Shown here: positions 18,093-35,277 of the stretch, piece by piece
Numbering within the stretch: the first letter of the stretch is position 1
Layout: each line of letters opens with the position of its first letter
From: Candidatus Poribacteria bacterium
GTDB lineage: Bacteria > Poribacteria > WGA-4E > WGA-3G
DNA: 64,000 nt
Direction of reading: 5' to 3'
Assembly: GCA_022820835.1 (NCBI GenBank)
Contig: JAJEET010000039.1
Location: 702-64,701, forward strand
Notes under the pieces: model-generated
Told to the model about the DNA's origin: nothing
What the model saw: only the letters and a program-made list of their open reading frames with translations
Databases searched by the model: none
Made by a program: the position numbers and the translations under genes

Positions 18093-18120
18093 TTGACAAA
18101 TTTCCTTTTTCGGTTATAAT
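18093..18120 (+). promoter_or_regulatory. Consensus sigma70 promoter at the head of the AT-rich island
   Basis: TTGACA at 18093-18098, a 16-nt spacer and TATAAT at 18115-18120, about 80 nt upstream of the first island ORF. Confidence 0.55.
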
Positions 18121-18154: not shown

Positions 18155-18198
18155 ATATTTTCAAATCATTAAAACGTTCAAATGGATCAATGCACATT

Positions 18199-18567: not shown

Positions 18568-20283
18568 TTGAACGAATTACTACAACAAATCTTTAATCTT
18601 GAAACCCCAATTGGTAGAACCATTGTCTACTGGATTCGTATATTCTTTTGGGTCGGTGTTGGAAACTACATTTGGCATTTAGGACGGTTAGGATATGAAT
18701 ATATCTGTCTTAAATTTGTTCAAATCAAAATCAAAAGGGGTCTTGATGTTATATCTCCTGATTTACTCAATCGGTTAGCTAAATCCGTAGTCATCCGTAC
18801 AGGTATTAGAGTAAGTATTATTTACCGGCGAATTCATGATCTGGGTAAAATTAAGCAGAACGGCGGTGAAATTGATCATAATGTCCTCGGTGACATCCAT
18901 GCAGGGGCAACCAGCAGAAAGGCAGGTTTATCGAACTATATCCTCGGTATTCTTATTATCCTCGGTTTAGTTGGGACATTGTGGGGATTAACGACGGCAG
19001 TTATTGAAGTCCAACCGCTTTTGCAAGACATTGATGACCTTGACCAATTGCCCCAAATTTCACGTGCCCTACAGGAAACATTAAAGGGCATGGGCACCGC
19101 ATTTAAAACGACGTTAGCAGGTTTGGTAACATCACTCGGTTTGGGGGCTTTGGGATGGCTTTTTAGTCTTTTAAACTCGGCTTTTCTCACCCAGTTTGAA
19201 ACAGTTGTAGCCACAGAAATAATTCCGCCTTTCAAACAAACCCCAGAGTCATTAATTGAATCCTCTGTAGATCAACTTCAGGTAAGTGTTGGCGAATTTA
19301 AGTTAGCAACGGAAGACAATGTTCGGAGAATGCAGGAATCAATTCAACAATTAACAGAGAAGTCATGGGATGCCTATCTGGAACAACAATACGTCATCGC
19401 AAATGAGTTGCGTGAGATTCCAGGAGAACTTCGTGAAAGTTTAGGCGGAATAAGTGAATATCAAGTCCTGATTAAATCCACGGTGGCATCTTTTGAGAAA
19501 ATGACTGAGAATTTCATGACCGAAATCTCAAAAAATCAATCTGCTGTGGATACTATGGTTGAAGAATTTAGGACATTAACAGAGAAATCCATGTCTCAAG
19601 TTTCGGAGTATCAAGCAGCACTACTTGAAGGTTTAGAAAATGTCGTATCAGAGTTTAAAGAAGAAAGTACGGAATTGAAAACGACAATTCGTGATGCTCA
19701 GAGTTCGCAAGCAAAATTTATTGACGAGCTTGCTAACAACCTTGCTGGCATTCTTGAGAAACAGTTTCAACCCATTGTAGAAAATCAGCAAGATATGATG
19801 GAAGGACTCCGTGTAACGGTTATTAATATACGCCAAATTGCTGACGAGTTACAGATACGGTCTGCTCTTGAGAAGCAGAACGAAGTTTTTGAGAGCATCA
19901 AATCAGAGTTGATACAAAATCAGCAGGAAATGCGTAATAGACTATCGGAATTAATAAGTAAACTTCAAATTATACCTGCTCTTGAGGCACAGAATAAAGT
20001 TTTTGGACGGATTGAAAGTCATCTGGCAGGGCAACGTGACTTGGTCGATAAGCAGATAGAAATAATGCAAACATTAGATAGCAGTGTGAACCGGCTCCAA
20101 CAAACTTTTTCAAAAACAGAATCGGATGAGCAGCAACGTACAGAGCAAATGTTACAGCAGCTCAGGCTGAATTTTGTCGCGCTCAGCGAGAAGATGGATA
20201 CATTGAACCATACAATGAGCAAGCCAGGTTTATATCGTTGGGGATCGGAAATTCGCCGTTGGTTTGGTGTTTTTCGCAGGTAG
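18568..20283 (+). CDS. MotA/ExbB/TolQ-family channel protein with a C-terminal coiled-coil tail of about 350 aa (ZorA-like architecture)
   Basis: Three TM segments. MotA_ExbB-like signature LGILIILGLVGTLWGLTTAV ... LKGMGTAFKTTLAGLVTSLGLGALGW. The remainder is heptad-rich and Q/E-rich with an internal repeat (ALEKQNEVFESIKSEL / ALEAQNKVFGRIESHL). TTG start with GGAG 10 nt upstream. Confidence 0.75.
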   Translation: MNELLQQIFNLETPIGRTIVYWIRIFFWVGVGNYIWHLGRLGYEYICLKFVQIKIKRGLDVISPDLLNRLAKSVVIRTGIRVSIIYRRIHDLGKIKQNGGEIDHNVLGDIHAGATSRKAGLSNYILGILIILGLVGTLWGLTTAVIEVQPLLQDIDDLDQLPQISRALQETLKGMGTAFKTTLAGLVTSLGLGALGWLFSLLNSAFLTQFETVVATEIIPPFKQTPESLIESSVDQLQVSVGEFKLATEDNVRRMQESIQQLTEKSWDAYLEQQYVIANELREIPGELRESLGGISEYQVLIKSTVASFEKMTENFMTEISKNQSAVDTMVEEFRTLTEKSMSQVSEYQAALLEGLENVVSEFKEESTELKTTIRDAQSSQAKFIDELANNLAGILEKQFQPIVENQQDMMEGLRVTVINIRQIADELQIRSALEKQNEVFESIKSELIQNQQEMRNRLSELISKLQIIPALEAQNKVFGRIESHLAGQRDLVDKQIEIMQTLDSSVNRLQQTFSKTESDEQQRTEQMLQQLRLNFVALSEKMDTLNHTMSKPGLYRWGSEIRRWFGVFRR

Positions 20284-20310: not shown

Positions 20311-20973
20311 ATGGACCTTCGGATGCGTCAAAATTCTGCTTTGAACGTGTGGCCCGCTTTTACCGATGTTTCCATCGCGATGCTGCTCATCTTTATATTT
20401 TTTCTTTTCATTCAATTTGTTTCCAACAGCAAGTTGATTTTGAAAATCCGAATGGAGAAAAAGCAGGACACGATACAAGAAGCTTTTGAAAAAAGGTTTG
20501 CCAATGAAATAAAAAGAGGTATTATCTCTATTGAACGGGATGGCAACCTGCAGCGATTTATGTTTAGTGACCGAATCCTATTTAAAACTGATGAGGCTGT
20601 CCTCCAACCGCTTGGAAGGTCTACACTCACTGCTGTTGGTCGGTTATTACAGAATTACAAAACGGACGAGAAGGGGCAGCAGTTGTATCAAAGTATTCAA
20701 ATTGAGGGACATACGGACAATGTCCCTATTATGTCTCCAGACCGTTCAAACTGGGAGCTGTCATCAGATCGAGCGATTGCCGTTTTACGTCTTTTTGTCG
20801 ATCATATTGGCATTGATCCGCGAACGCTAAAGGCAACAGGTTATGCAGAATTTCGTCCTGCTGCAGGTGATAGTTCTAATATAGAAGGTGCTAACAGTAC
20901 CGAAACGAAACGCGCGAAAAATCGCAGAATTGAGATCGTTTTAGTCTATTCGGAAACGGAGGGGAACAGGTGA
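20311..20973 (+). CDS. MotB/ZorB-like protein: N-terminal TM with conserved Asp plus OmpA-like peptidoglycan-binding domain
   Basis: WPAFTDVSIAMLLIFIFFLF resembles the MotB TM (Asp codon at 20365-20367). OmpA-like motifs are IEGHTDNVPI, SNWELSSDRAIAVLRLF and NRRIEIVL. Confidence 0.85.
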   Translation: MDLRMRQNSALNVWPAFTDVSIAMLLIFIFFLFIQFVSNSKLILKIRMEKKQDTIQEAFEKRFANEIKRGIISIERDGNLQRFMFSDRILFKTDEAVLQPLGRSTLTAVGRLLQNYKTDEKGQQLYQSIQIEGHTDNVPIMSPDRSNWELSSDRAIAVLRLFVDHIGIDPRTLKATGYAEFRPAAGDSSNIEGANSTETKRAKNRRIEIVLVYSETEGNR

Positions 20974-22352
20974 GCGTTTGTCCTTATGCAAATACGAGTG
21001 AGGTATGTGGCCTGCCAGCAGTAAATACGGATCAGGGCAGTATAGTTGCTTATTGCCAAAAGTGTTCTGAGGTTATTTTTCGATGTGCTTCGGGGCATTG
21101 GAATCGTGCTTTTGCGCGTTATTGCACACAATGTCGTCAAGAACTTGAGAAACCTGCACAATGGGGTATGGCTTCGGCAAATCCGCAACGCACCGCAACA
21201 CTGCCCCACATATCTTCTGTTGATGCTCTGAATCGTGATTACGGTTTCAATACTGGGGTTGTAAATATCCCTAAGATGAACGTTGATGGAGATTTGCCCG
21301 GAATCCTTGTGATTGATGGATTGATCGTCGTCCCGAATCCTAATGAAAAAAAATTGGATGCCTACACAATAGCGAATCCATTCGATCAGAGGAATCTTAA
21401 ATTGAAGTGGAGTATCTCTTACGATGAGGCGTTAACTTATGGGGCAACGCCAGTTTATCATGGGTTCCATCTATACTATGTTAGTTCGGCTGGTATTCGG
21501 CGACAGCCAGTTGTTGGCGGAGAAGTAAAACCTGTGGAATTGAATGATGTAACTTCCGCACCTATTCAACCTACTCCGAAATGCGCCCCACTGAAATGTT
21601 ATATCAATAGAAGTCCAACAATGATTGTTGGCTTGGAGCAAGGTGTGCTACTCTTAGACCTTGTAAATAATGAAAGTAACTATATTGGGCACAAATTTTT
21701 CAGCGAAAACACGGTGATGTCGCCCGTTCAGTGCCGAGAATATATAGTTTTCACTACACTTCAGGGACAAATCTTTACGCTTAACATGAATATGATTGGT
21801 GATAAGATGGTACCGCCAAAGGTGTATCGGGATATATCTTTCTCTGCTCCCATTTCGTTAAGCGGGAGGGTTTATTTTGAGGCTTTAAGCGGGAGCGGCA
21901 ACCGGAGCCTTGCATGTTTCGATCCGAGTTCGGGCAAATTGTCTAAAGTAATAGAAATGGACAACGACCCAGAAAGCAATTTTGAAAATCGCCAAGTTCT
22001 TTTCACACACCCTCCACTTACTGATGGAAACCGATTGTTTGTGTCTGATAGGTATGGAAAGCAGGTTTATATCTATGATATCGAAGATGGTTATTCATCT
22101 AAAAGAAGTTTGCCGCAAAACGATGTTCGATATATGTTTGCTCCGCACCTATCTATCGTTGTGAATAACCGAATTTATTCTCCGACTTCATACGGTTTAA
22201 CTACTCTGGATCTTACACAGAATTATGCCGCCGGACATCGATCATTGGCAATGGGGATGCCACCGGTACCGAAACCGATTGCCCGCCCTGTTCGGTATGG
22301 TGATAAATTGTTTATTTTATGTGAAGATCGACTACTGTGTCTCGGTTGTTAG
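20970..22352 (+). CDS. Double zinc-ribbon protein with C-terminal PQQ/BamB-like beta-propeller
   Basis: The GTG start overlaps the upstream stop (GTGA). The N-terminus has Cys pairs CPYANTSEVCG...CQKCSEVIFRC...CTQCRQEL. It is followed by repeated strand motifs (LIVVPN, HLYYVSS, YIVFTTLQGQIFTLN, GRVYFEAL, NRLFVSDRYGKQVYIYD, DKLFILCEDRLLCL). Confidence 0.6.
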   Translation: MSVCPYANTSEVCGLPAVNTDQGSIVAYCQKCSEVIFRCASGHWNRAFARYCTQCRQELEKPAQWGMASANPQRTATLPHISSVDALNRDYGFNTGVVNIPKMNVDGDLPGILVIDGLIVVPNPNEKKLDAYTIANPFDQRNLKLKWSISYDEALTYGATPVYHGFHLYYVSSAGIRRQPVVGGEVKPVELNDVTSAPIQPTPKCAPLKCYINRSPTMIVGLEQGVLLLDLVNNESNYIGHKFFSENTVMSPVQCREYIVFTTLQGQIFTLNMNMIGDKMVPPKVYRDISFSAPISLSGRVYFEALSGSGNRSLACFDPSSGKLSKVIEMDNDPESNFENRQVLFTHPPLTDGNRLFVSDRYGKQVYIYDIEDGYSSKRSLPQNDVRYMFAPHLSIVVNNRIYSPTSYGLTTLDLTQNYAAGHRSLAMGMPPVPKPIARPVRYGDKLFILCEDRLLCLGC

Positions 22353-22366
22353 GAGGTCGATTTATA

Positions 22367-24286
22367 ATGGAATACTTAATAAGTGTTCAGAGACATATTT
22401 TTTTTGTAATAGTTTTCCTTGTTTTGATGCTATTCTTGCCAGCAGCACATGCCAAACATATTATAGTTGTTTACGATGTGTCTGGTAGTATGATTGGCCT
22501 TAAAATTGGTGGGAGAACAGAAGTCTATATGGAGTCCGATGATATACGTCGGGTTAACGATTATTTGGTAGGTCTGCTATTTACGGATACGTCGCAATCT
22601 TTGCGTGATAGCAATGACACACACATTGAGGAATGCAAAGCTACGTTCGTCGGTAAACCTCTCTACCAGAGCGGTGATGTACTCACTTATGTCGAATATG
22701 CAAAACAAGGGAAGATAAAAATAAACAGATCAAAGGTATCTCGTAACGAATTTCAACGGCAGCTGCCAAACCCGATAAACCTAAAATCATCCTTCCCTGG
22801 GTTGGTTTCTTACTTGCTGCGCGCAGAGGTTGAGGTGTATGACGAATTATACCGTAAGGATGACAATGAAACGTATTGGGTCTTTGTAACGGATGGTGAT
22901 ATTGATAATAGTGGAAAAAGCGATCCTGGCATAACTACAGTCTTACAACGACAGGCAGCAATTGAAAAGGAATTTTATTCGCCACTAATATTGAGTCTTT
23001 TTGTTAACAATCATGTTAAAATTGAAGTTAGACAACTTCAAAAACGGGACGACATCAAGTCAATTTTTATTGCGACTCCAATAAAACCAAAACAGCCAGT
23101 GCGAAAAATACAACTCTCGAGAAATATGGAAGGGCAGTTTTTCAGTGAAACCTTAACTATTGACACGGAGAATTCCGCAAAAACGAAATTTAAACTCAAC
23201 AGTGTCGGTGTAGAAGTTGTTGATAAACACAACAGACCTCTTCAAATTGTGACTGAAGATAATGGATTCGGTGTGCTTGAAGTTCCGCCTATTTTACTTA
23301 ACGAAAATTCACCACCGTATGAATTTCAAATACTGCTTTCCGCACATCCAGAACTTGCTGCTCCCGGCAATGCGTTAAAACTTGAGGTCATATATAACTA
23401 CAATGGTAAAGATGAAGTCTACTCAGCCCCGCTGATGAACTATACAGCAGTTATTGACAGTATCTATGTTGCCACGCTTGAAGAGCCTGATCATCCGACA
23501 AAAAAGTTAGATATCGTTTTTTCTGAAGGTAAATATAGCCAAGCGTTGACTATTCAGAGTGAGAGTCCAAACATAGACGCGTTCCAAATCGGTGAAATCC
23601 GTTGTCAAATTCAGTATAAGGATACCCGTAAACTTTGCGATGTGACTGTGCCTCAAACAATAAAGCGTTTGGGTGAATCTTTTAACTTAGAAGTACCAAA
23701 AGAAAACCGTTTGGATTGGTATGGCAACAAAGTTGTATTTGAAATTGATTATCAATATGAGGGCGATACCAAATCAACTACGATTCAGATGCCCTTTAAA
23801 GTCCGAGGTGGTGGAACAGGTTTCCCAATGTGGTTGCTTTGGGTTCTAATTGCTATTCCTTTAGTTGGCCTTGTTTTACTATTGGTTCGCCAGATAAAGC
23901 CTATCCTTGTTCCTCCTCTACCTGTCTATCATGTTGCGTTAACCGAAGTGGGCGAAGGGGGCACTGAATTAGGGGAAACAAAATATGTTATATTTAAGGA
24001 CAAGGCTACACTTGAATTTGGGGCGCGTGGTTCCAATGAATCCCGTTTTGATGTTGGAAGTGAAGCTTTCTTGTACTGCGACAAGAAAAATATCATACTT
24101 TTTACTGATGCTGACGACGACGAAGGACAAATATTAGATTTACCAGAAACAATAACGTTGATTCGAGATGAAGATGATGAAGTCTGCGTCCGTTGTGAGA
24201 TAGTAGACGATACCTCTGACGAATCAGAGGAGGAGCGATCTATTATTGACGCGAATCCTTCTAATGATGACCCGCTTGGTGTATGA
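22367..24286 (+). CDS. Secreted von Willebrand factor A (vWA) protein with a single TM and an acidic cytosolic C-terminal domain
   Basis: AGGAGG RBS lies 10 nt before ATG 22367. Signal peptide ...LFLPAAHA, then the MIDAS motif IIVVYDVSGSM (22475-22492). TM segment FPMWLLWVLIAIPLVGLVLLLV. The C-terminal domain of about 125 aa ends in a D/E-rich tail ...NDDPLGV. Confidence 0.8.
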   Translation: MEYLISVQRHIFFVIVFLVLMLFLPAAHAKHIIVVYDVSGSMIGLKIGGRTEVYMESDDIRRVNDYLVGLLFTDTSQSLRDSNDTHIEECKATFVGKPLYQSGDVLTYVEYAKQGKIKINRSKVSRNEFQRQLPNPINLKSSFPGLVSYLLRAEVEVYDELYRKDDNETYWVFVTDGDIDNSGKSDPGITTVLQRQAAIEKEFYSPLILSLFVNNHVKIEVRQLQKRDDIKSIFIATPIKPKQPVRKIQLSRNMEGQFFSETLTIDTENSAKTKFKLNSVGVEVVDKHNRPLQIVTEDNGFGVLEVPPILLNENSPPYEFQILLSAHPELAAPGNALKLEVIYNYNGKDEVYSAPLMNYTAVIDSIYVATLEEPDHPTKKLDIVFSEGKYSQALTIQSESPNIDAFQIGEIRCQIQYKDTRKLCDVTVPQTIKRLGESFNLEVPKENRLDWYGNKVVFEIDYQYEGDTKSTTIQMPFKVRGGGTGFPMWLLWVLIAIPLVGLVLLLVRQIKPILVPPLPVYHVALTEVGEGGTELGETKYVIFKDKATLEFGARGSNESRFDVGSEAFLYCDKKNIILFTDADDDEGQILDLPETITLIRDEDDEVCVRCEIVDDTSDESEEERSIIDANPSNDDPLGV

Positions 24287-24411
24287 AATTATTTCTTGTC
24301 ATTTTTTCCTATTCATGGTATCTTGCACGCGCATGAGTCAGAAATTTTATTAACTATGAGCGTGCTTTGGAGCATGCCGAGTGACAATAATTGGATATTC
24401 AAGGAGAATGT

Positions 24412-24807
24412 ATGACGGGCATTGCTGATTTTTTTGGAGACCCATTGGTATGGCCGGCTATTGTTTATTTACTTGCTTATACTTTTGTATGGTTGATCGC
24501 ACTTGTGCTCGGTCAATTCTTAAAGAATCGATTTAGCATTGAGCGTGCGGCAAAAATAGCATGGAGAATTGCGCTTTTTATACATATTATCGGCGGAACA
24601 TTTCTTATAATTTGGCTTTGGGACAGAGCGCATAACCGATTCGCAGATGGGTTATATTCACTCCTTTATCTGCTTCTCTACATAGTAATTATGATTGCTG
24701 ATGTTTACTTGATATTTTCAATACTATCCGAGAATCGTAAAAAAACAGAAACTGACTCGCAGACTCCAAAAACAACAGGTAGATCTCGTAACCCAAAAAA
24801 GAGTTGA
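24412..24807 (+). CDS. Small polytopic membrane protein with a basic C-terminus
   Basis: Three to four hydrophobic helices (VWPAIVYLLAYTFVWLIALVLG, IALFIHIIGGTFLIIWLW, LLYLLLYIVIMIADVYLIFSIL). AAGGAG RBS lies before ATG 24412. Confidence 0.5.
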   Translation: MTGIADFFGDPLVWPAIVYLLAYTFVWLIALVLGQFLKNRFSIERAAKIAWRIALFIHIIGGTFLIIWLWDRAHNRFADGLYSLLYLLLYIVIMIADVYLIFSILSENRKKTETDSQTPKTTGRSRNPKKS

Positions 24808-24852: not shown

Positions 24853-27800
24853 ATGATTACACCTACATTATTTATTGGACTTGGAACAACTGGAACCAAT
24901 ATTTTAAAAGAGTTACGTAAACTTATGTCTGAGGAATACGGGCACTTGGGGTTGCCGCTTTTTCGATATATTGCTATTGAAACAAATGGTGAAGTAGAAG
25001 TTCAAAATACTAACCAGATGGAGGATTATGAACGAATTAACCTAATAAGCGCGACAATTCCGACTGTGATACCGATTCGTCATAAACTGACTCCAGGAGA
25101 TCCGTTGCACAATCCACAATTGGTAAATTGGTTGGATCCTGAACTCTTAAAAATTGAAGCAGGTAGCTTTATAGCGGGTGCTTCTAATATCCGTATGGCA
25201 GGTAGATTGTGTTTGTGGGAAAACTGGGCTAACGTACAAAATACATTCAGCAGAGCACTTGGTGCTATTATCGCTCCCGCTACGACACGACAAACAGAGG
25301 ATATATTGACACAACGCAAGAAAATCGCCGGGAATCCTCTTGATACGGAGGGTGCCATTAAAATCTATGTTGTTGGTTCGCTTTGTGGCGGTTCTTGTAG
25401 TGGAATGCTTATTGATGTCGCGTACTTTTTAAGACACCTCCTTAGTGGATACGGTGATCAATCAAAGGTATTTGGAATCTTTACAATATTTGATGAGAAT
25501 CACGCTGCAAAACCGGATGCTATGTGTAATATACGTGCCGCTAATTGTTATGCCAGCCTTTTAGAGTTGAATTATTATCATCATCAGGATACGACTTATG
25601 ATATAACCTTTCCAGATGGACGAAAGATTGAAAATATGCGGAAAAAGCCGTTTGATTATACATTATTTGTTTCACCGAGTGGCAAAATAGCCGGTAACCA
25701 ATTTGTAAAACCAAACGGTTCCTTTGATGAAGAAGGTTTGAACTTGATGGTTGCCCTGAATCTTTTTGCTGAATCTGCTGCGGACACAGGTGGAAGAAAA
25801 GATGAAATTCGCACAAATTTTACGTCTCATGGTAATTTTGGGACATTGAAACCGGTTCCACAAGGTGAAATCCGCACGATGATACGATATATGGCAAGTT
25901 TTGGCTTAACGGCTGTTTGGTACCCTAAATATCGCATCGCAACAGCTGCTGCCTGCTTAATCAGTAACAAATTATGTGACGATTGGCTTACATCACACAT
26001 TCCACAGGCCACGACTGTGAAAAATGCAGAAACGGAATGGAATCAGATACTGAAAGAGAATATTGATACACTCACCAATCCAGACGGGCAAGCACCAATA
26101 AAGAGTCGGATTGAAACACAACTTACATTGGCAAAACAACAATGGGGTAATAAAGATATCTCGTCTTATCAATTAAGCCAGAATATGGAGGGTTTCCCAA
26201 CTGGAGAATCATTCCGGGAGAAATTTGAGCAGGGTGGCGAGTACGTTGAATTAATGAAAATGCAGGGTGCTGAGTGCCAAAAGGCATTTCACAGTGCCAT
26301 CGAAAAAACTTTGAATAACCAATTAGGGCGCATCGATTTTTCCGGAGCACACGGATTACATGACGTGAGAATATTCTTTGAAACGCTTGATAAGGAGATT
26401 GAAAAAACGATTCAAAATTGTCCAGAGCGAATGCCGTCTTTAGATTTGAGAAAACTGAATTTTGAACCGATGGGTAGAGCAAATAATAGTTTTTGGTTGA
26501 AGAGTCTTTGGCTACGTGAGTATGCAGTTAAATCACATCAGAATAACTTAATTGACCAATATTGCAATTTGATTATCGGAGGTGGGACGAGTTTTTATGA
26601 GTCGGTACGAAATTATTATTTAAGGCCGGTTTTACAAGAAATCCGCACCAAACTTGGTTTTGGGGTAATTCCATCGGACGAAGTTGGACCTAACCGACCT
26701 CAAACAATTAAAGAGCGATTGGATAAAATAGAAGGGAACCTAAATGACTGTATCAAGGAATTCAAAAACGAATATAATAAAGCTATCAATCCACCAAGAT
26801 CTGAATGTGTGAAGATTGTTGCTAATAATTCAGAGAATCGAATTGATACGGATGCAGCGACATTGAGTCACCAGATTTCCCAGTCGGATGATGGTATTGA
26901 CTTGCTCCGTGGAGAATCTATAGCTACATTTTTAGCGAAAGAACGGGCAGATATAATCGCTTGGATGACTGAAACTTACCGGCAACTATCGTTAGATCAG
27001 GTACAGGTTGATGATGTTGTTACAAAAGCCCAAAATCTTTTAGACTCCGGAAGTTCAGACATCCAAAATCTCGCCAGTCGATCAAATCCGTACCAGATGT
27101 TCACGCCAACTTATATCCCGTTTACCGTCTCGGATTCACCAAATATAATCTTTGGACAAATTGGGGCGGTATTAACGAATTTAAACAACAATTTAAGTAG
27201 TCCCGAATTATCATTTGGTGTAGGCCCATCTTCTGTAGACCACCTCCTGTTTTTCTATCAAGAGGAAGCAGGTTTTGCCTTAGATGATTTGGTTGCACAA
27301 GGTATGCTTATTGATAAATTTCGGCGAACTCCAGGGGAATATGGACATTCAACCCATCAGAACCCAGATTTTTACAACCTCGAACTTTACGACAAAACAC
27401 AAAAAATCAAACGCTGGTGTCAGGTGTTAGCACGTCTTGTACCGGAAATATGCAACCGAATTGACAGAAAGGCCTTTGAGGGAGTGTTTCAACTTGATCA
27501 TGGGAAATATGTTTATGAATATATCGTAGATGGATCAACCAAATGGCTCGGTTTGCGGAATCACGAGAGTGGGATAAAGGAGCTTTCCATGAAGCAAAAC
27601 GAGAGTGCGTATCATGAATTTTTCAATGCCGTGCAGTCCCGTTTTAATCGACTGGATCGTGAAAAAATTAATGAAAGTATAATCAAACCGTTGTTATTAG
27701 AAGTTGAAAACCTTGAAACTCGTAATACAGTAAATAGTTACTACAATCGTTTCCTGAATGAAGTTTACTCTAACGATACTATCGTGAATGATACGGCTTC

Positions 27801-28344
27801 CAGTGTTGAAGTTGAATTGGACGCGTATTTTTCACAGGTTAGTTCCGGTGCACCTGAGGAAGCTCTACGCAACGAAGCGGAGCAGGAACCACCAGAGCAG
27901 ACCGAAAATATAAGGAGTGAAAGTGCCGCGGATCAAACTACAGACACAGATGACTACGAAGAGGAAACTTCTGAACCAGAGGAAGTGGGACATGATGTCG
28001 GCACCGTGAACCAGCCGAGATATACAAATAGCGACAACTATTACGAAGAAAGTGTAGATTCTGAGGAAACGGATTCATCGTCCGAAAATACGCTATCCAC
28101 AGAAGTCAACGAAGACGAGATTGTATGGAGTGAAGTTGAACCTGAAGCGGATCCCAGTTCCGCAGAAGAATTTACTGAAGAGGTTATGATCAAAGAATCT
28201 TCTTCAGAGCAACAGTCACAGCCAGAAGTTGTCCCTGGAAACGTTAATCAGGATAAACAAACACAACCCTCTAAAGAATTTTCTGTGGCTGATGTTGACT
28301 TAAAACCGATACAGCGTCGTGGGAGCACTCGTAAGAAGGAGTAA
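24853..28344 (+). CDS. Giant tubulin/FtsZ-superfamily GTPase-like protein (Tubulin_2/PF13809-type N-terminal domain) with an acidic disordered tail
   Basis: The N-terminal LFIGLGTTGTNILKEL resembles the T1 loop. VVGSLCGGSCSGMLIDVAYFL (25375-25404) resembles the T4 GGGTGSG signature. The last 160 aa or so are D/E/S-rich and end in a basic patch, RRGSTRKKE. Confidence 0.7.
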   Translation: MITPTLFIGLGTTGTNILKELRKLMSEEYGHLGLPLFRYIAIETNGEVEVQNTNQMEDYERINLISATIPTVIPIRHKLTPGDPLHNPQLVNWLDPELLKIEAGSFIAGASNIRMAGRLCLWENWANVQNTFSRALGAIIAPATTRQTEDILTQRKKIAGNPLDTEGAIKIYVVGSLCGGSCSGMLIDVAYFLRHLLSGYGDQSKVFGIFTIFDENHAAKPDAMCNIRAANCYASLLELNYYHHQDTTYDITFPDGRKIENMRKKPFDYTLFVSPSGKIAGNQFVKPNGSFDEEGLNLMVALNLFAESAADTGGRKDEIRTNFTSHGNFGTLKPVPQGEIRTMIRYMASFGLTAVWYPKYRIATAAACLISNKLCDDWLTSHIPQATTVKNAETEWNQILKENIDTLTNPDGQAPIKSRIETQLTLAKQQWGNKDISSYQLSQNMEGFPTGESFREKFEQGGEYVELMKMQGAECQKAFHSAIEKTLNNQLGRIDFSGAHGLHDVRIFFETLDKEIEKTIQNCPERMPSLDLRKLNFEPMGRANNSFWLKSLWLREYAVKSHQNNLIDQYCNLIIGGGTSFYESVRNYYLRPVLQEIRTKLGFGVIPSDEVGPNRPQTIKERLDKIEGNLNDCIKEFKNEYNKAINPPRSECVKIVANNSENRIDTDAATLSHQISQSDDGIDLLRGESIATFLAKERADIIAWMTETYRQLSLDQVQVDDVVTKAQNLLDSGSSDIQNLASRSNPYQMFTPTYIPFTVSDSPNIIFGQIGAVLTNLNNNLSSPELSFGVGPSSVDHLLFFYQEEAGFALDDLVAQGMLIDKFRRTPGEYGHSTHQNPDFYNLELYDKTQKIKRWCQVLARLVPEICNRIDRKAFEGVFQLDHGKYVYEYIVDGSTKWLGLRNHESGIKELSMKQNESAYHEFFNAVQSRFNRLDREKINESIIKPLLLEVENLETRNTVNSYYNRFLNEVYSNDTIVNDTASSVEVELDAYFSQVSSGAPEEALRNEAEQEPPEQTENIRSESAADQTTDTDDYEEETSEPEEVGHDVGTVNQPRYTNSDNYYEESVDSEETDSSSENTLSTEVNEDEIVWSEVEPEADPSSAEEFTEEVMIKESSSEQQSQPEVVPGNVNQDKQTQPSKEFSVADVDLKPIQRRGSTRKKE

Positions 28345-28350
28345 TCGAGT

Positions 28351-31080
28351 ATGGCAGACGTGTTTTGTTCAAAATGCGATGTCGGTTGGGTAATTTACTC
28401 ACATGATAAGCATTGCGGGTATTGCGGGTGTAAAATCTTTGATTTTGAAGTGAGATGGGAAGAAGAGCCGTTGCTTTACGTAGGTGATGGAGCGGATATC
28501 TATGACCGAACTATTTTCGTAGAAAACACTGGGGCCTATCCGATTACATTCCATCCAATTCAAACGATAAGAGATGATACAATTCTATTTCCACAGCCGA
28601 ATGACAGTCCTTTTGAAGTCAAGGCTGGTAAATTCCGCGCTGTTCCGATTCAGGTGAAATTGGCAAATTTAGAACGGGCTCACGAAGTTATCACTGTGCG
28701 AGTACAGGATGCACCATCGGATTTTGAAAACGAAAAATCATTGTGTCTTAAGACTTTGCCAGATCCTGAATTTAAACTGACTCCGGATCCTATAGAAGTT
28801 CGTTATCGAAGAGGAATAAAAAAGACAACGGTAGACCTCCACCTTGAGGTGCTGCAAGGTGAGTTTTATATCAGTGATATTAAAGTCAAACAGGGATCTG
28901 TTCTTCGTGTTGGTTATTCCAAAGACCTCCATAAAAAAAACAGCGTATCCAAAAAACTCCTGTTAGAGCTCGACTGCAACCAACTCAGTGATGAATTGAG
29001 TATGGTAAAACTAAATTTTGAAATTCGAGACTTACCTCAGCCTATTGAAAAGCGAATTGAGATCCGAAGAGAGGTAGTACCAGATCCACCAAAACTATTC
29101 GTTCCACAAATGAATCTGGACATCACACAGGATCGTACGAAAACACACATCTTAACGCTTCAGAACAGAGGCGAACGTCCGTTGACAATCCAAGATATTA
29201 TATTCAATAGTCCTTCCAATTTAGTCCAGCTGCCAGACCTTGAGTTCCCTATAAAAATTGAGAGCGGAAAACATCAGAATATTGAATTGCAGGTTTCTGC
29301 GGAAGGTATTGAACCCGAGACTTATCCCATTAACTTTAACATCAACTCCAATTGTGAAGATGCCTCAGAATATGAAGATGTCCTAAATGTAAAGGTTAAT
29401 AAGCTAGAAGAGTATCCACATTATCTCGCTATTGATTTTGGCACAACGAATTCGTGTTGCGCGTATATTGATTTGGATACATACAAACCGAAACTCATTC
29501 CGTTAGATACTAAAGCGAACCCGCCCGAAATTATGCCTTCAACAATTGTTTATCACAGTAAGCCGACGAATGGGAAAACACATCACGTCGGATATGATGC
29601 AGAGAACTTTCGAACAAGTGAAATTGACGGTCCTTATTATATCACTTCTGTCAAGCGTTGGTTAGGATATGAATGGGGACGACACTTTCCAGACAATCAA
29701 AATATACAACCCTGTGATGTGGTTGCGGATATCTTTACCCATATTATTCAACAGGCGGAAAAGTATTTGGATACTTTTACGACTCAATCAAAAGTTAACA
29801 AATGTATAGTTACCTATCCGACAATGTTTCCGCATGAGCAACGGGCGGACTTGAGACGCGCATTTGAGAAAATTGGCATTGACGATGTTATCCTCATTGA
29901 TGAGGGGTCGGCAGCTTCTATCGCAACAGTTTTTCAAAGACGTGTAAAAGACACCTCAAAGGATTATAGAATGCTTGTTTATGATTTTGGAGGTGGGACT
30001 ATTGACATTGTCCTATCGCAAGTCAGTAACAATGATGGAGAAATAAAATTTGAACCGCTTGCCAGTGGGGGAAACCCCAGATACGGTGGTGAGGATGTAA
30101 CACATGCAATTGTTAAAGATATTTTGGAAAGACTAAGTACCGAAATTCGGCGTGTAAATCCAAATCTCAGTTTTGAGATTCCTTATTTTGATTCAAGAAA
30201 AACATCTATACCTTTTGAAAAGACAAGTATTGATAGAGCAAGACTATTTAATTCAGTTATATTGTATAGTCAGGCGGAAAGGATAAAAAAAGAACTCGGC
30301 GAAAAATCAGAAACGACAGGATCTTTTCCTATAGAGGTTGTTGTTGGAAATGACACACGATCGCTTGAAAATCTAACTCAAGGCGATACTACCGTGCAGT
30401 TGTCAACGCAGCAGTTGCAGAAAATTATCAAACCTGGATTAAGTAAAACCTTTGATGATATTGACGCAATGATAGAAGCCAATGACGCCCGCTTGCCTGA
30501 CATTGTTATTCTTGCAGGTCAATCCTCAAAAATGCGTGCTGTTAAACAGATGATGCATACCCATTTCCAAAATAAGTACGGAAGAAGTGTTGACGTTCAG
30601 CTGGGGGATCCGCCTAAAGAATGCGTTGTGCTGGGTGCTGCGGAATATGGTCGGCACCATATAGTACCGGATGATGATGGGGACTGGATAAATTATGCCG
30701 ATTTGTCAAATATAACACACTCACGGTTGGGTATCGTTAAAATTAGAGGACGGCAACCGATTTTTAGCGAGATTATTCCCAAAGGGAAACGAATACCTAA
30801 TAATAGTCGGAATACGGTAGACTTTCCGCTTCGCTCACAGGAAACTTATATTGATGTCCACGAGCATTTCGGCACGGATGATGATTTGGCAAACAGTTCG
30901 CAAGTTGCCAGTTACACACTCACGTTACCAGAAAATGTAACGAAGGAAGAATTACAGAAGGCGCGTTTAGAGATGTCCATCAAAGCTGACGGTGAGATTG
31001 AATTGATTGCACTTGTAGGTGGTAAAAAATATGATTCAACTGTGAAAAAGAAGAAACCGCCATTTGTAGACAAAATTTAA
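28351..31080 (+). CDS. Zinc-ribbon + tandem beta-sandwich (PapD/ASH-like) + Hsp70 (DnaK-like NBD and SBD-beta) fusion protein
   Basis: Zn ribbon CSKCDV...HCGYCGC. Hsp70 motifs are LAIDFGTTNSCCAY (phosphate 1, from about 29419), VYDFGGGTIDIVLS (phosphate 2), VILAGQSSKMRAVKQMM and ECVVLGAAEYG. The C-terminal SBD-beta-like part reads RLGIVKIRGRQPIFSEIIPKGKRIP...ARLEMSIKADGEIELIA. No helical lid is evident. Confidence 0.85.
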   Translation: MADVFCSKCDVGWVIYSHDKHCGYCGCKIFDFEVRWEEEPLLYVGDGADIYDRTIFVENTGAYPITFHPIQTIRDDTILFPQPNDSPFEVKAGKFRAVPIQVKLANLERAHEVITVRVQDAPSDFENEKSLCLKTLPDPEFKLTPDPIEVRYRRGIKKTTVDLHLEVLQGEFYISDIKVKQGSVLRVGYSKDLHKKNSVSKKLLLELDCNQLSDELSMVKLNFEIRDLPQPIEKRIEIRREVVPDPPKLFVPQMNLDITQDRTKTHILTLQNRGERPLTIQDIIFNSPSNLVQLPDLEFPIKIESGKHQNIELQVSAEGIEPETYPINFNINSNCEDASEYEDVLNVKVNKLEEYPHYLAIDFGTTNSCCAYIDLDTYKPKLIPLDTKANPPEIMPSTIVYHSKPTNGKTHHVGYDAENFRTSEIDGPYYITSVKRWLGYEWGRHFPDNQNIQPCDVVADIFTHIIQQAEKYLDTFTTQSKVNKCIVTYPTMFPHEQRADLRRAFEKIGIDDVILIDEGSAASIATVFQRRVKDTSKDYRMLVYDFGGGTIDIVLSQVSNNDGEIKFEPLASGGNPRYGGEDVTHAIVKDILERLSTEIRRVNPNLSFEIPYFDSRKTSIPFEKTSIDRARLFNSVILYSQAERIKKELGEKSETTGSFPIEVVVGNDTRSLENLTQGDTTVQLSTQQLQKIIKPGLSKTFDDIDAMIEANDARLPDIVILAGQSSKMRAVKQMMHTHFQNKYGRSVDVQLGDPPKECVVLGAAEYGRHHIVPDDDGDWINYADLSNITHSRLGIVKIRGRQPIFSEIIPKGKRIPNNSRNTVDFPLRSQETYIDVHEHFGTDDDLANSSQVASYTLTLPENVTKEELQKARLEMSIKADGEIELIALVGGKKYDSTVKKKKPPFVDKI

Positions 31081-31136: not shown

Positions 31137-32387
31137 ATGCAGAAAATCGTATGTATCATTGATCTCTCCGCTATCGAAATTCAGATTGGTGTTTTCACTG
31201 AAAAGAAATTTAAAATCATCCGTCCGGCACTCCCATGGAAGGTTGGATTTCGGCAAGTAACCGATGGTACATTAGTTTCTTGTTTTGGGGAAATGTTGGA
31301 TCGACTTGATCCAGACAATCCCGCGGAAGTTCGGTTCACAGACTTGGATGTGAAATTCAAGGAAATTACAGATGAAAAAACCTTAGAATGCTTATTTAAC
31401 GCATTTTTTCAGGAGATTTTTCATCGGAGGTTATCTGAACACGAATATTCTATGGATGCTATATCGGTATATGTTATTACACCGTTCGAGTGGAAACCCG
31501 TACACCGTCAACAGTTCAGGAAAGCATTCAAGCGTTTAAATAGCAAAATGCCGGTTTCATTTCTCAAGACATCAAATGTGACACTCCGGGGTGTACTCAG
31601 CCAGATTCTATGCCTTTCTGCCTATTATCAGAAGACGTGGATTAATATACTCACAGACCCAAACAAATGCCATCTGTTTCTGGTAGATTTTGCACGGAAC
31701 GATTTTGTAGTCTATCATACGATTTGTAATCAACTGGAAGACAGTATTATAGTTGAATTAACCGATATACTGCGGTTTATTGACTTCTTTATGGATATAG
31801 ATAAAAAGGTTTCAGATGTGCAAAAGATGTTTCAACAGGTTGAGGAGGGGCAGCACGTTGCAATTGGTTTTTCTGGCAGAATTGACGATACTGCTCTAAA
31901 GTTCATTGAATTGTTGCGAGCGCGACACAGCGCAACATTTCTTGAACCGCAGGAGACCGCAACACTTTTGGGTGGGGCAGAATTGGTTAGGTACTTTGAA
32001 GAAGAAAACCTTGAAAAACCACTTCACTTTATCTATAATTATTGCTTCGGTGTGCAGTTACCTGATGGAAAAAATGTTGATTTTGTCCCAAATACATGGA
32101 CACCCCCCTATCATCGTAAAAAAGCCTTTCGTGTCACGGGGGACGTTAAAGAATTCAATGTCCATCTTTACTGCGGCTTATCCATGACGACTAACAGCGA
32201 TGTCCATCATCTCGCGACACTTAAGATTGTCCCGCGGGAGAATAAAAAATATACATTGAACAGCCCGATGGAATTTATACTTTCTGTTACCTTGAATGAT
32301 GCTACGCATGGTACATTTGCTTTACATCTTCCAAATTCACAAGGGGCGCAATCGGTTGGATTTACTATACCAGTTTTGATGGACTAA
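31137..32387 (+). CDS. Degenerate Hsp70-like paralog (predicted pseudo-ATPase)
   Basis: Collinear with Hsp70 but with eroded motifs: IIDLSAIEIQIGVF (vs DLGTTNS), LFLVDFARNDFVVY (vs DLGGGTFD), VAIGFSGRIDDTAL (vs LVGGSTRIP) and ATLLGGAELV. The SBD-beta-like C-terminus reads YCFGVQLPDGKNVDF...EFILSVTLNDATHGTFALHL. Confidence 0.5.
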   Translation: MQKIVCIIDLSAIEIQIGVFTEKKFKIIRPALPWKVGFRQVTDGTLVSCFGEMLDRLDPDNPAEVRFTDLDVKFKEITDEKTLECLFNAFFQEIFHRRLSEHEYSMDAISVYVITPFEWKPVHRQQFRKAFKRLNSKMPVSFLKTSNVTLRGVLSQILCLSAYYQKTWINILTDPNKCHLFLVDFARNDFVVYHTICNQLEDSIIVELTDILRFIDFFMDIDKKVSDVQKMFQQVEEGQHVAIGFSGRIDDTALKFIELLRARHSATFLEPQETATLLGGAELVRYFEEENLEKPLHFIYNYCFGVQLPDGKNVDFVPNTWTPPYHRKKAFRVTGDVKEFNVHLYCGLSMTTNSDVHHLATLKIVPRENKKYTLNSPMEFILSVTLNDATHGTFALHLPNSQGAQSVGFTIPVLMD

Positions 32388-32423: not shown

Positions 32424-33629
32424 ATGTCTTATTTCAGATTTATATTATTCTTCACATTAATACTATTGGGTTTTGTTTCAATTGGGTTTTCACAAGGAGA
32501 CGGAGACCAACTAGACATTGAACCAGTTTTATCGGAATCTCTGCTTTGGACTGTGTTAATCGTTCTCGTGATACTTGCAATCCTTGCTTTGGTCGTTTTT
32601 TTCGTTGTTAAAATGGTTAGGCGATGGAAAGCAATGTGGCAAAAAACACAGGTATTATCTACAGACATAAATCATCTTACTCATGAATTAAATGGAAAGT
32701 TGGATACTATTCAGAAAATTAGCACCGGAAACGCCAACAAATTTAAAGAAATAGAATCAATACAAGCATCAGTTCAAAAAGACCAGGAAAGTATACAATT
32801 TGATATTGGGCAAATAAGAAACTATATCAGCCAAGTTAGCACGTATTTGGAAGAATTACATTCTAATAGAAGCGTTGATGTAGATGATACAAGGGTCTCA
32901 ATTGATTATCCTCTTGAAGTGCAAAAAGCAGTCCAATCGGCAAAAAATCGGGTATTGAAAATAGCAAAGGCTTACGAAAATGGCGAACCGATGGAATTAG
33001 TTGGTGTTGATAGCCCAACACCAAGTCAGAATGTGTTGATAATTTTAAATTCAATGGCGTATGATTTAGGTGAATGGAAAGCAGAAATAGAACAATCCGC
33101 GACAGCTAATTCCGAATTTGTAGATATTTTAACAAACGCAGAAAGTGACATCAGAGATAGGCTTAAACGCATTCGCAGTAAATCTCCAATTTCGCCTATA
33201 CCTCTTGATGTAAAAACTGATGTCAACACAGAAATTGAACTGAATCATATCCGCAATCAGTGTATTGCTTATGCTGCCTATTTTGAGGGAGTGCTTACCG
33301 GATATGAACTGACATATAAGGTTGATGAGGAGGAATATAACCAATTTATTCCACAATTTATCAGGTATCGCCTGTTTAATGAGGTTGCAGATTTTGTGCC
33401 CTTTGAAGATTTGCCTGAAAAAATGGAAAGATTTTTAAGGTTTTTAGATTATGAAGTGGTTCCTATTGAAATAGAGATAACGAAAGCTGATTCACATGTA
33501 CATGATATACGGGAATCAAGGCAATCTAACGGCGAACCTGGAACTGTCATTGAGATCGTTTCCCCAGGTCTTAGGCGTATAGCAGACGGTGAAATTGTTC
33601 AAAAACCGGTGGTCATCCGCGGAGAATAA
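32424..33629 (+). CDS. Membrane-anchored coiled-coil protein with a GrpE-like C-terminal domain
   Basis: Two N-terminal hydrophobic segments followed by RRWK, then a long coiled-coil region. The C-terminus ADSHVHDIRESRQSNGEPGTVIEIVSPGLRRIADGEIVQKPVVIRG mirrors the GrpE beta-domain pattern (FDPxxHeA...gtVvev.q.GY.l.gr.lRpA.V.V). Confidence 0.6.
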   Translation: MSYFRFILFFTLILLGFVSIGFSQGDGDQLDIEPVLSESLLWTVLIVLVILAILALVVFFVVKMVRRWKAMWQKTQVLSTDINHLTHELNGKLDTIQKISTGNANKFKEIESIQASVQKDQESIQFDIGQIRNYISQVSTYLEELHSNRSVDVDDTRVSIDYPLEVQKAVQSAKNRVLKIAKAYENGEPMELVGVDSPTPSQNVLIILNSMAYDLGEWKAEIEQSATANSEFVDILTNAESDIRDRLKRIRSKSPISPIPLDVKTDVNTEIELNHIRNQCIAYAAYFEGVLTGYELTYKVDEEEYNQFIPQFIRYRLFNEVADFVPFEDLPEKMERFLRFLDYEVVPIEIEITKADSHVHDIRESRQSNGEPGTVIEIVSPGLRRIADGEIVQKPVVIRGE

Positions 33630-34778: not shown

Positions 34779-35273
34779 ATGACCGCTCAGGAAAAAATAA
34801 GACTTACATGGCTCGTGAATATCGCTGTGGTATGTTTAGGTTTAGGTATTATGCTGCCGGTTATGCGAATTGATGCGAACGATGGCACTATCCGCGGATT
34901 TATCATGGCGTTTATCACACCTGGACCTTCAAGTTATTCGATTTTGAGTAGCGTCTGGGCATTGATAAAGAAAGGTATTGTCATGGACGTTATACTTGGG
35001 AGCATTATCTTTCTTTTTTCGGTTGTTTTTCCAATCTTGAAGTTAGGCGTGTTCTATCATACACTCAGTGGTGGTACACCGAACAGAGGTATTTCAGCAT
35101 TCGTTCACAAATGGGGTCGGTTTTCGATGCTTGATGTCTATATCGTCGCTATATTGATACTGACAATCAGGAGCCTCCCCGGTGGTGCACAGATTGAGCC
35201 GAGTTGGGGACTATTGCTCTTTACAATCTCGGTCGTTCTCAGCCTTTACATTTCATCACGCCTTGAGGCATAG
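34779..35273 (+). CDS. PqiA-like integral membrane protein (single-repeat)
   Basis: PqiA-family patterns: SILSSVWALIKKG, IIFLFSVVFPILKL, WGRFSMLDVYIVAILIL and EPSWGLLLFTISVVLSL. Confidence 0.6.
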   Translation: MTAQEKIRLTWLVNIAVVCLGLGIMLPVMRIDANDGTIRGFIMAFITPGPSSYSILSSVWALIKKGIVMDVILGSIIFLFSVVFPILKLGVFYHTLSGGTPNRGISAFVHKWGRFSMLDVYIVAILILTIRSLPGGAQIEPSWGLLLFTISVVLSLYISSRLEA

Positions 35274-35277
35274 ATTT

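Follow-up and report, generated by a model that had tools for sequence, protein, structure and literature searches.

The tubulin-like gene and its product

The DNA analysed here, referred to as the window, is a 64-kb stretch (64,000 nucleotides, nt) of a genome of Candidatus Poribacteria, which are sponge symbionts (contig JAJEET010000039.1). Our subject is the open reading frame (ORF) at 24853..28344 on the forward strand, which starts with ATG and encodes 1163 residues, together with the 12-gene cluster in which it lies. The product, called here the Tubulin_2 protein after its Pfam family, carries two glycine motifs, FIGLGTTGTN at residues 7–16 and GSLCGGSCSG at residues 175–184 (nt 25375–25404). 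Its last 163 residues are markedly acidic (28% Asp + Glu, 7% Lys + Arg) and the chain ends in a basic patch, KPIQRRGSTRKKE. An earlier reading of the same DNA, made without database searches (the original prediction), had placed the ORF, the two motifs and the acidic tail at these positions, where all were found.

Pfam assigns residues 6–369 to PF13809 (Tubulin_2) with E=9.7e-44 and 150.5 bits against a cutoff of 27, covering profile positions 1–349 of 356. This is the sole family that Pfam reports at E<=1, and PF00091 does not match. Because the PF13809 match is so strong, the motifs and the tail amount to more than a chance resemblance. Both glycine motifs are invariant in 101 full-length homologs and their glycines are ~97–100% conserved in 156 distant relatives. 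A full-length AlphaFold model, built from 102 homologs, has a mean predicted local distance difference test score (pLDDT) of 73.4 and is confident for residues 1–975. In this model, with secondary structure assigned by DSSP, the first motif forms the strand 1–helix 1 loop (residues 9–16, between strand 5–10 and helix 11–29) and the second the strand 4–helix 4 loop (residues 177–184, between strand 170–176 and helix 183–200). As modelled, the two motifs occupy the T1 and T4 positions of the FtsZ/tubulin fold, and not positions away from the nucleotide. When the model was compared with the PDB using Foldseek, the top 50 matches were exclusively CetZ, tubulin, gamma-tubulin, FtsZ or BtubAB, each with a probability of >=0.80 and most with 1.00. 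The best was CetZ2 (4b45_A; E=6.3e-5, probability 1.0, target-normalised TM-score 0.46), and in a library of viral structures phage tubulins gave the best matches. No PADLOC or NCBIfam model matches the protein itself. The original prediction had named the Tubulin_2 family, and with both family and fold in agreement the protein almost certainly belongs to the tubulin/FtsZ superfamily, within the branch known as FtsZl1 or Tubulin_2. This branch is among the most diverged of the superfamily and very widespread: an exhaustive HMMER search with residues 1–420 returned 2304 representatives (clusters at 50% identity, hence >2,300 such clusters) at E<=1e-3 and 743 at E<=1e-10. The relatives are mostly 950–1050 residues long.

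The N-terminal nucleotide-binding domain (residues 1–369, nt 24853..25959, forward strand) is delimited by the Pfam match, the Foldseek matches and loop conservation. Column conservation, computed on 139 close and 156 distant homologs, identifies three loops that are near-invariant throughout the family: T1 (nt 24871–24900) as G9-x-G11-[TS]-[TS]-G14, a T3-like loop (GAxNIRMAGR, nt 25177–25206) as G109-A110-x3-R114-x2-G117-R118, and T4 as G179-G180-[TS]181-x2-G184. Asp-188, Asn-231 and Glu-238 are also near-invariant. The glycine-to-arginine spacing of the T3-like loop equals that of the FtsZ sequence GAGANPEVGR. Since T1, T3 and T4 are near-invariant across the family, the protein has very probably retained nucleotide (phosphate) binding. 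Two cysteines flank the paired glycines of T4 (C-G-G-[ST]-C, residues 178–182, nt 25384–25398) and are 99% conserved in the Poribacteria clade and 75–80% conserved in distant members. We note that a redox- or metal-sensitive nucleotide loop is conceivable at this site.

The rest of the chain divides into a stalk and a tail. Residues 370–996 (nt 25960..27840, forward strand) are predicted to form a helical stalk with a small alpha/beta domain and terminal helices, and this region is conserved in all full-length homologs. Residues 360–1000 modelled separately gave a pLDDT of 86.4, and the best PDB match of that model had E=0.15 and probability 0.15, so that no structural relative was found. Nothing in the predicted structure of the C-terminal two-thirds of the protein resembles the FtsZ or tubulin C-terminal domain.

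Residues 997–1163 are predicted to be disordered (AlphaFold pLDDT <50). Most of this tail is an acidic linker (residues 997–1142, nt 27841..28278, forward strand), recognised by its composition and a pLDDT <35. It is poorly conserved and gapped, varies within the Poribacteria clade in both sequence and length, and is missing from distant family members, whose chains stop at about residue 1000. Its nucleotide identity to locus L002, one of nine Poribacteria loci described below, is 67% compared with 85–95% in the adjoining regions. The last ~21 residues (FSVADVD...RKKE; residues 1143–1163, with the stop codon nt 28279..28344, forward strand) form a peptide, FSVADVDLKPIQRRGSTRKKE, which most homologs of the Poribacteria clade retain despite the variable linker; Phe-1143 is near-invariant. 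Such a pattern makes the peptide a candidate docking motif. In FtsZ, a C-terminal linker is followed by a conserved C-terminal peptide that docks the protein onto FtsA and other tethers, and tubulin E-hooks are 10–20 residues long. The original prediction had likened the tail to an E-hook. A variable linker of ~165 residues that is restricted to one clade and ends in FSVADVD..RKKE instead resembles, by analogy, the FtsZ arrangement more closely.

The 12-gene cluster

The Tubulin_2 gene is one of 12 co-directional genes, closely packed or overlapping, that occupy about 18.0–37.9 kb of the window on the forward strand and are flanked by genes for RraA-like and PALP enzymes. The original prediction also had the gene co-encoded with a stator and a chaperone module, and a MotA/MotB-type pair and an Hsp70-like gene are indeed present. 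Seven of the 12 proteins have predicted transmembrane (TM) or exported segments. A predicted promoter-like site, TTGACA-16-TATAAT, at 18093..18120 (forward strand) lies where the GC content drops, upstream of the first cluster gene; the assignment relies on a 12/12 match to the sigma-70 consensus.

The first two genes encode the stator pair. The MotA/ExbB/ZorA-like subunit (18568..20283, 571 residues) has TM helices, a GLVGTLWGL motif and a coiled-coil-like C-terminal tail of ~370 residues. Its best PADLOC match is ZorA3 (E=1.6e-11) and it is syntenic in eight of the nine Poribacteria loci, L002 ending at a contig edge. The MotB/ZorB-like subunit (20311..20973, 220 residues; Pfam OmpA 1.5e-13, PADLOC ZorB1 1.7e-23) has a single TM helix preceded by Asp-19 (in PAFTD) and then an OmpA-type peptidoglycan-binding domain; its NCBIfam MotD/MotB matches are all below cutoffs. 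The third gene (20970..22352) encodes a 460-residue beta-rich protein with N-terminal, Cys-rich zinc-ribbon-like motifs whose cysteines are conserved. It has no match in Pfam, NCBIfam or a profile search of PDB sequences; a homolog occupies the equivalent position in the distant locus L016.

Next comes a vWA-like membrane protein of 649 residues (22337..24286), recognised by a signal/TM segment, the metal ion-dependent adhesion site (MIDAS) motif DVSGS and a TDG motif. Met-11 is probably the conserved start. The MIDAS is predicted to be periplasmic, and a second TM segment (residues 499–517) is followed by a cytoplasmic acidic tail. Asp-47, Ser-49 and Ser-51 and the Thr-185–Asp-186–Gly-187 triplet are invariant. 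Pfam VWA does not match the protein and a PDB profile search was empty. An hhalign comparison with the integrin alphaM I-domain aligned DxSGS and TDG collinearly at a probability of 0.8%, which is not significant. Homologs are present in L014 and L016, and same-position genes in L010 and L015 have weak Pfam VWA matches. Directly upstream of the Tubulin_2 gene lies a small protein of 138 residues (24391..24807) with three TM segments and positional conservation: a protein of 120–142 residues takes this place in five of the eight other neighbourhoods described below.

The gene that follows starts 6 nt past the Tubulin_2 stop codon (28351..31080) and encodes a 909-residue Hsp70/actin-fold ATPase-like protein (Pfam HSP70 1.3e-28, MreB_Mbl 2.2e-10) with an N-terminal zinc ribbon and immunoglobulin (Ig)-like domains (Pfam Ig-like 3e-5). 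Its NCBIfam HscA/DnaK matches fall far below cutoffs. Homologs adjoin Tubulin_2 genes in L010, L014, L015, L016, L017 and L019. The adjacent 416-residue protein (31137..32387) is syntenic and of no known family, with no match in Pfam, NCBIfam or a profile search of PDB sequences. It may be a degenerate actin/Hsp70-fold protein, as an hhalign comparison with the Hsp70-like profile was collinear at the connect-1 and phosphate-2 motifs, at a probability of 0.2%. The gene at 32424..33629 is the most variable of the cluster and encodes a 401-residue membrane protein with two hydrophobic segments, a coiled coil and a cytoplasmic domain. At L007:16000-19494 an Hsp70-like protein of 1164 residues is fused to the cytoplasmic C-terminal domain of this TM/coiled-coil protein, and both the fusion and the TM/coiled-coil protein end in ...VQKPVVIRGE. 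Read as a Rosetta-stone fusion, this gives a hint that the Hsp70-like protein (28351–31080) and the TM/coiled-coil protein (32424–33629) interact physically.

The last three genes encode envelope proteins. A 350-residue exported protein (33636..34688) is transglutaminase- or cysteine-protease-like by weak matches (Pfam Transglut_core 0.0044, NCBIfam LapG 1.1e-4); it has a Pro-rich linker, a C-terminal TM helix and an acidic tail, and is 70–96% identical across loci. It is followed by a small PqiA-like integral membrane protein of 164 residues (34779..35273; Pfam PqiA 5.9e-12) and by a multi-Ig/carbohydrate-binding module (CBM)-like protein (35275..37857; Pfam AMPK1_CBM 7.5e-5). For the latter we moved the start from the listed GTG at 35182 (an 891-residue ORF), which overlaps the PqiA-like gene by ~90 nt, to the ATG at 35275, 2 nt past the PqiA-like stop. 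The protein is probably ~860 residues long, since nucleotide alignments with its orthologs begin at 35275–35278. L019 has an AMPK1_CBM protein at the equivalent relative position, and L016 a homolog.

Several further features were looked for. None of the 12 proteins contains a Walker A motif ([AG]xxxxGK[ST]) or matches a GTPase family in Pfam or NCBIfam. No division/cell-wall (dcw) genes lie in or beside the cluster, and the 64-kb window has no tRNA genes. A comparison of the flanks with E. coli gave no match. The canonical FtsZ signatures GGGTG[ST]G and GxGGxGxN occur in no frame of the window, a result that concerns the window and not the genome.

Conservation of the cluster in Poribacteria

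Nine genomic loci were recovered, all from Candidatus Poribacteria, and the 12-gene cluster is syntenic among them. Identity of the Tubulin_2 protein across these loci ranges from 47 to 93%. The closest locus, L003 (OZ244821.1), shares the upstream RraA-like gene. The GC content of the cluster block in the window is ~40% compared with ~50% in the flanks. A clear step of this kind is seen in four genomes (L001, L003, L005 and L009), where the cluster lies 8–10 GC points below the upstream flank (0.53 to 0.42 in L001, 0.52 to 0.43 in L009); these genomes have diverged to 49–63% protein identity. The drop could be due to repeated transfer or to a compositional constraint.

Nucleotide identity along the cluster is uneven. 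To L003 it is mostly 94–98% over 20.5–26.5 kb (95–97% for the greater part of the MotB-to-FtsZl1 segment), only 62–65% over 29.5–31.5 kb (from the middle of the Hsp70-like gene into the beginning of the 416-residue gene), lost or ~66% over the TM/coiled-coil gene, and 90–95% again from 33.5 kb. To L002 it is ~64% over the Ig/CBM gene and mostly 85–98% upstream. By these comparisons the cluster is a recombination mosaic, and sub-modules seem to have been exchanged between Poribacteria lineages. We also note that L007 carries a second Tubulin_2 paralog in tandem directly after the first (L007:13205-15850). It is split into ORFs of 287 and 561 residues and is probably frameshifted or decaying; the first L007 copy is without the conserved end peptide.

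Neighbourhoods in other bacteria

Eight further Tubulin_2 neighbourhoods were sampled (L010, L012 and L014–L019). A five-gene core, in the order ~450–500-residue protein, vWA-like protein, ~120–140-residue TM protein, Tubulin_2 and Hsp70-like protein (800–935 residues), recurs in Ca. Thiodiazotropha (L010) and in the metagenome loci L014, L015 and L016, the Hsp70-like gene coming first in L010 and L015. The core is supported by direct sequence similarity to the Hsp70-like, vWA-like and 460-residue proteins of the window. All four of these loci are without the stator pair. L017 has the architecture of the window, stator included. In L012 (Verrucomicrobia) only vWA genes adjoin Tubulin_2, and L018 and L019 have OmpA-, PqiA- and AMPK1_CBM-type genes in differing combinations; in L018 the PqiA-like gene adjoins Tubulin_2 and two Tubulin_2 genes are present. 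Because the core recurs across phyla without the stator, the tubulin-like/vWA-like/Hsp70-like core is old and the MotAB/ZorAB-like stator was added in one lineage. In other taxa, relatives adjoin a Type ISP restriction enzyme, an RHS/YD toxin, insertion sequence (IS) elements, ImmA/IrrE-DUF4411 and DUF3800.

Relation to known systems

PF13809 is the FtsZl1 ('FtsZ-like 1') family of Makarova & Koonin 2010 (PMC2875224), a correspondence confirmed by PMC9871819. These authors described conserved T1 and T4 loops, T6-H7/T7 that could not be identified, no C-terminal FtsZ domain, and a long coiled-coil and alpha-helical C-terminal region (PMC2875224). The FtsZl1 operons encode vWA and OmpA-domain proteins, a P-loop GTPase, kinases and many membrane proteins, and FtsZl1 usually coexists with canonical FtsZ (PMC2875224). 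Membrane remodelling was proposed and filament formation left open, 'do not form filaments' being one of three possibilities listed; the authors argued that all characterised superfamily members form filaments (PMC2875224). Our locus conforms in its strong, near-full PF13809 match, its retained T1 and T4, its unidentifiable T6-H7/T7 and its OmpA-domain, TM and putative vWA genes. It differs in that the Poribacteria clade adds the ~165-residue acidic tail with the conserved end peptide, and the cluster lacks the P-loop GTPase and protein kinases of the 2010 operons, having instead an Hsp70-like ATPase and a MotA/ZorA-like partner of the OmpA/MotB-like gene. Neither Hsp70 nor MotA is mentioned in the 2010 paper (PMC2875224). 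The description of the locus in the original prediction as an unusual cytomotive element therefore needs qualification: the family and its vWA/OmpA-like gene links are already known (PMC2875224), and the associations with a stator and an Hsp70-like protein are the part absent from that account. What appears to be new is the Poribacteria-type architecture (FtsZl1 joined by a ZorAB-like stator and an Hsp70-like ATPase but no DO-GTPase), the arrangement of linker and end peptide in the Poribacteria clade, which is like that of FtsZ, the 630-residue stalk without a structural relative, and the mosaic, low-GC character of the cluster.

Compared with FtsZ and FtsA, the likeness lies in the Rossmann-like fold with T1, T3 and T4, the disordered linker with its end peptide, and the adjacent ATPase of the actin/Hsp70 superfamily. 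Unlike FtsZ, the Tubulin_2 protein has no PF00091 match, T7 synergy loop or FtsZ_C and carries a 630-residue stalk. It shares the fold of the N-terminal domain with CetZ, tubulin, gamma-tubulin and BtubAB (Foldseek probability 1.0), but at 9–16% sequence identity and with only partial superposition (root-mean-square deviation 6–15 Å). It also lacks the intermediate/C-terminal tubulin domain, and its tail is ten times the length of an E-hook and confined to one clade.

There is also a likeness in theme to the DO-GTPase/GAP1 systems. The cluster and these systems have in common a tubulin-domain protein extended by helices at its C-terminus, a TM protein whose vWA-like domain is extracellular, an HSP70-family ATPase, zinc ribbons, Ig/fibronectin type III (FNIII)-like repeat proteins and proximity to the membrane. 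However, the Poribacteria cluster has no Walker A motif and no Pfam match to DO-GTPase or GAP1; in particular, the 460-, 416- and 401-residue proteins and the listed 891-residue ORF have no significant Pfam match to GAP1. Pfam contains models for these families. Kaur et al. 2020 described these 'GTPase-centric' conflict systems (DO-GTPase/GAP1-N2) with a tubulin+vWA theme and a separate HSP70 theme, non-overlapping and confined to Firmicutes and Actinobacteria, and predicted the regulated assembly of cytoskeleton-like complexes (PMC7159879). In Poribacteria and Proteobacteria the two themes are combined. The cluster is thus thematically related to the DO-GTPase/GAP1 systems and not a member of that class.

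The stator resembles that of Zorya in its MotA-like protein with a long C-terminal coiled-coil tail and its MotB-like protein, which carries both a TM Asp and a peptidoglycan-binding domain, and ZorA3 (1.6e-11) and ZorB1 (1.7e-23) are its best matches in the defence library of PADLOC. With the NCBIfam ZorB1 equivalog, however, the score is 32.6 bits (cutoff 400), lower than with the generic MotB/MotD models. The cluster also differs from Zorya in having no ZorC, D, E, F or G genes, in the ~370-residue tail, and in its tubulin-like, Hsp70-like and vWA-like partners. Finally, a force-transducing role has been put forward for vWA proteins that are coupled to TolQR-like 5:2 motors, in the Planctomycetes–Verrucomicrobia–Chlamydiae (PVC) group among others (PMC12204202). 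A vWA-like protein that is TM-anchored, periplasmic and encoded next to the two genes of a 5:2-type motor fits that description. The differences are that the motor is MotAB/ZorAB-like with a cytoplasmic tail, that the vWA-like protein has a second TM segment and a cytoplasmic domain, and that the conserved core of the cluster is cytoplasmic (the tubulin-like and Hsp70-like proteins).

Proposed function

The best explanation of the whole, to which we give a probability of roughly 0.55, is that the Tubulin_2 protein is a GTP-regulated membrane scaffold or switch in an envelope-linked cluster. FtsZl1 would be the central cytoplasmic component of the membrane-associated 12-gene cluster. It would bind GTP and act at the inner membrane as a nucleotide-regulated, self-associating scaffold or switch. 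The C-terminal peptide may tether it to another protein of the cluster, the neighbouring actin/Hsp70-fold ATPase being the most plausible, much as FtsZ is tethered to FtsA. In this way envelope events sensed by the vWA-like protein and the stator could be coupled to assembly of a cytoplasmic complex. The leading candidate for the biological role is envelope-based sensing and response in conflict with phage or other invaders, with membrane remodelling a close second. We hold the conflict role only tentatively, at somewhat less than even odds. It is hinted at because the best matches of the stator are ZorA/ZorB models, because the cluster is low in GC and a recombination mosaic, because relatives adjoin the restriction enzyme, toxin, IS elements, ImmA/IrrE-DUF4411 and DUF3800 genes listed above, and because related tubulin+vWA and HSP70 neighbourhoods have been predicted to be conflict systems (PMC7159879).

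A number of observations weigh against this picture. Sequence-only searches do not reach any solved FtsZ or tubulin structure: phmmer of the protein against PDB sequences gave no match, an HMMER profile of 34 diverse relatives found helical-bundle noise and no FtsZ/tubulin chain in the PDB, and hhalign between the family profile and a single E. coli FtsZ sequence aligned the T4 region only (probability 3.9%). It is thus the Pfam model and the predicted fold that carry the superfamily link; the failure fits the strong divergence of the Tubulin_2 family. Canonical FtsZ and tubulin carry Gly at both positions of the T4 cysteines. No conserved acidic motif of the T7 synergy-loop type (NxDxxD/E) follows the H7-like helix in near or distant homologs. 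Conservation of Asp-311 is limited to the Poribacteria clade, and 51% of distant members have Gly there; at position 322, 91% of distant members have Asp or Asn. Neither FtsZ_C nor Tubulin_C is matched in Pfam, and the model of residues 360–1000 has no significant PDB match. On the side of a conflict role, no nuclease or toxin effector is recognisable in the cluster, PADLOC finds no Zor effector and nothing beyond ZorA/ZorB in the ten largest cluster proteins, and many Poribacteria have the complete cluster, an unusual distribution for a defence system. The eight neighbourhoods outside the nine syntenic Poribacteria loci are a small sample, and in the literature searched there is no experimental study of any FtsZl1 protein and no description of this cluster.

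The original prediction spoke of a polymerising GTPase. Because there is neither a T7-type motif nor an FtsZ_C/Tubulin_C-like domain, canonical head-to-tail polymerisation with GTPase activation is unsupported and this claim does not stand in its original form. Self-assembly of some kind is, in our estimate, evenly balanced.

Of the alternatives, the one that survives best is a housekeeping cytoskeleton for membrane remodelling, as envisaged by Makarova & Koonin. FtsZl1 would form filaments by a non-canonical mechanism, perhaps via the stalk, and with the vWA, OmpA/MotB-like and other membrane proteins shape the inner membrane, vesicles or the Poribacteria envelope. This was proposed for FtsZl1 from its vWA, OmpA and TM-protein contexts, and the argument that all characterised superfamily members form filaments extends to it (PMC2875224). 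The TM or exported segments in seven of the 12 proteins are in keeping with it, as is a complete syntenic cluster in nine diverged Poribacteria genomes, which is what a core function would give. However, a low-GC, recombining mosaic with mobile- or defence-type neighbours elsewhere is atypical of cytoskeleton genes, and the T7 loop and C-terminal domain that make the known filament contacts are not detected. We consider this explanation unlikely, though worth keeping in view.

Slightly less probable still, and in our view doubtful, is a GTP switch or pseudo-GTPase that does not assemble. The tubulin-like domain would bind nucleotide or nothing at all, and serve as a regulatory module, monomeric or dimeric, or as a rigid scaffold for the stalk, without polymer or cytomotive activity. 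The missing T7 loop, the missing FtsZ/tubulin C-terminal domain and the altered T4 (CGG[ST]CSG) would all be expected of such a protein, and a non-filament option was listed for FtsZl1 (PMC2875224). Against this, T1, T3 and T4 are near-invariant across a very large and old family, and tandem or paired Tubulin_2 genes (L007 and L018; Firmicutes in PMC7159879) suggest hetero-oligomerisation.

A third alternative takes the stator as the driving element. By analogy with Myxococcus gliding (stator, vWA adhesin, MreB and GTPase) and with TolQR-coupled vWA force transducers, the cluster might encode a machine for force transduction, adhesion or motility, in which the MotAB-like stator would move or tense the vWA-like and other envelope proteins while FtsZl1 and the Hsp70/actin-fold protein provided a cytoplasmic track or platform. 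The stator does combine a peptidoglycan-binding domain with a conserved TM Asp, a periplasmic location and a TM anchor are predicted for the vWA-like domain, Ig/CBM-like and transglutaminase-like envelope proteins are present, and vWA force transducers with 5:2 motors have been proposed in groups that include PVC (PMC12204202). Nevertheless, the stator pair is missing from most non-Poribacteria neighbourhoods that keep the FtsZl1/vWA/Hsp70-like core and is hence an add-on. Its long cytoplasmic coiled-coil tail is Zorya-like and unlike TolQ/ExbB, and no SHLS or TolA-like motif was seen in the vWA-like sequence, for which no formal motif search was made. We regard this machine as improbable.

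Some PVC-group phyla lack FtsZ, and the linker, end peptide and adjacent actin-fold ATPase do mimic the FtsZ–FtsA layout, yet a replacement cell-division protein in an FtsZ-lacking organism is very remote given the flanking RraA-like and PALP genes, the absence of dcw genes in or beside the cluster, and its low-GC, mosaic nature; FtsZl1 moreover typically coexists with canonical FtsZ (PMC2875224).

A more far-reaching reading, which we think speculative, is that the cluster encodes an envelope-spanning machine of a kind not recognised before. In it a proton-driven, ZorAB-like 5:2 stator would be coupled through its cytoplasmic coiled-coil tail to the tubulin-superfamily GTPase and the Hsp70/actin-fold ATPase, both assembling on the membrane. 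Such a machine would be a cytoskeletal immune device triggered by the motor, or else a cytomotive apparatus that the stator drives, with FtsZl1 polymerising via the stalk in a T7-free manner. Stator–tubulin coupling, if true, would join the separate fields of 5:2 rotary motors (Zorya) and bacterial cytoskeletal GTPases. The present locus offers a well-defined and strongly conserved example of FtsZl1, with a confident model, a stalk of ~630 residues and a candidate docking peptide, and it is linked genetically to both an ion-driven stator and an Hsp70-like ATPase.

Short reading frames upstream of the cluster

Between the promoter-like site and the first cluster gene, at 18183–18490, there is a short lipoprotein-like frame (...FFFIGC/DGEMPILDPPEPPPP...). 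It lacks a start codon, and a poly-T tract marks the point where an ATG frame upstream falls out of register with it. We rejected this small ORF as a member of the cluster: a similar stretch is found only in L003 and is interrupted there by an in-frame stop. A gene remnant or a homopolymer sequencing error is the probable explanation. A second short ORF (MKLEQVINQDPEIHGGTPVFKGTRVPVEALIDHLKSGESLDYFLEGFPSVTREQAIAFLE...), at 17586–17805, separates the cluster from the RraA-like gene. Judged by eye, it may be likened to a small antitoxin-like protein of the DUF433 type. At the same junction of RraA-like gene and cluster, L003 carries ~1.1 kb of extra DNA.

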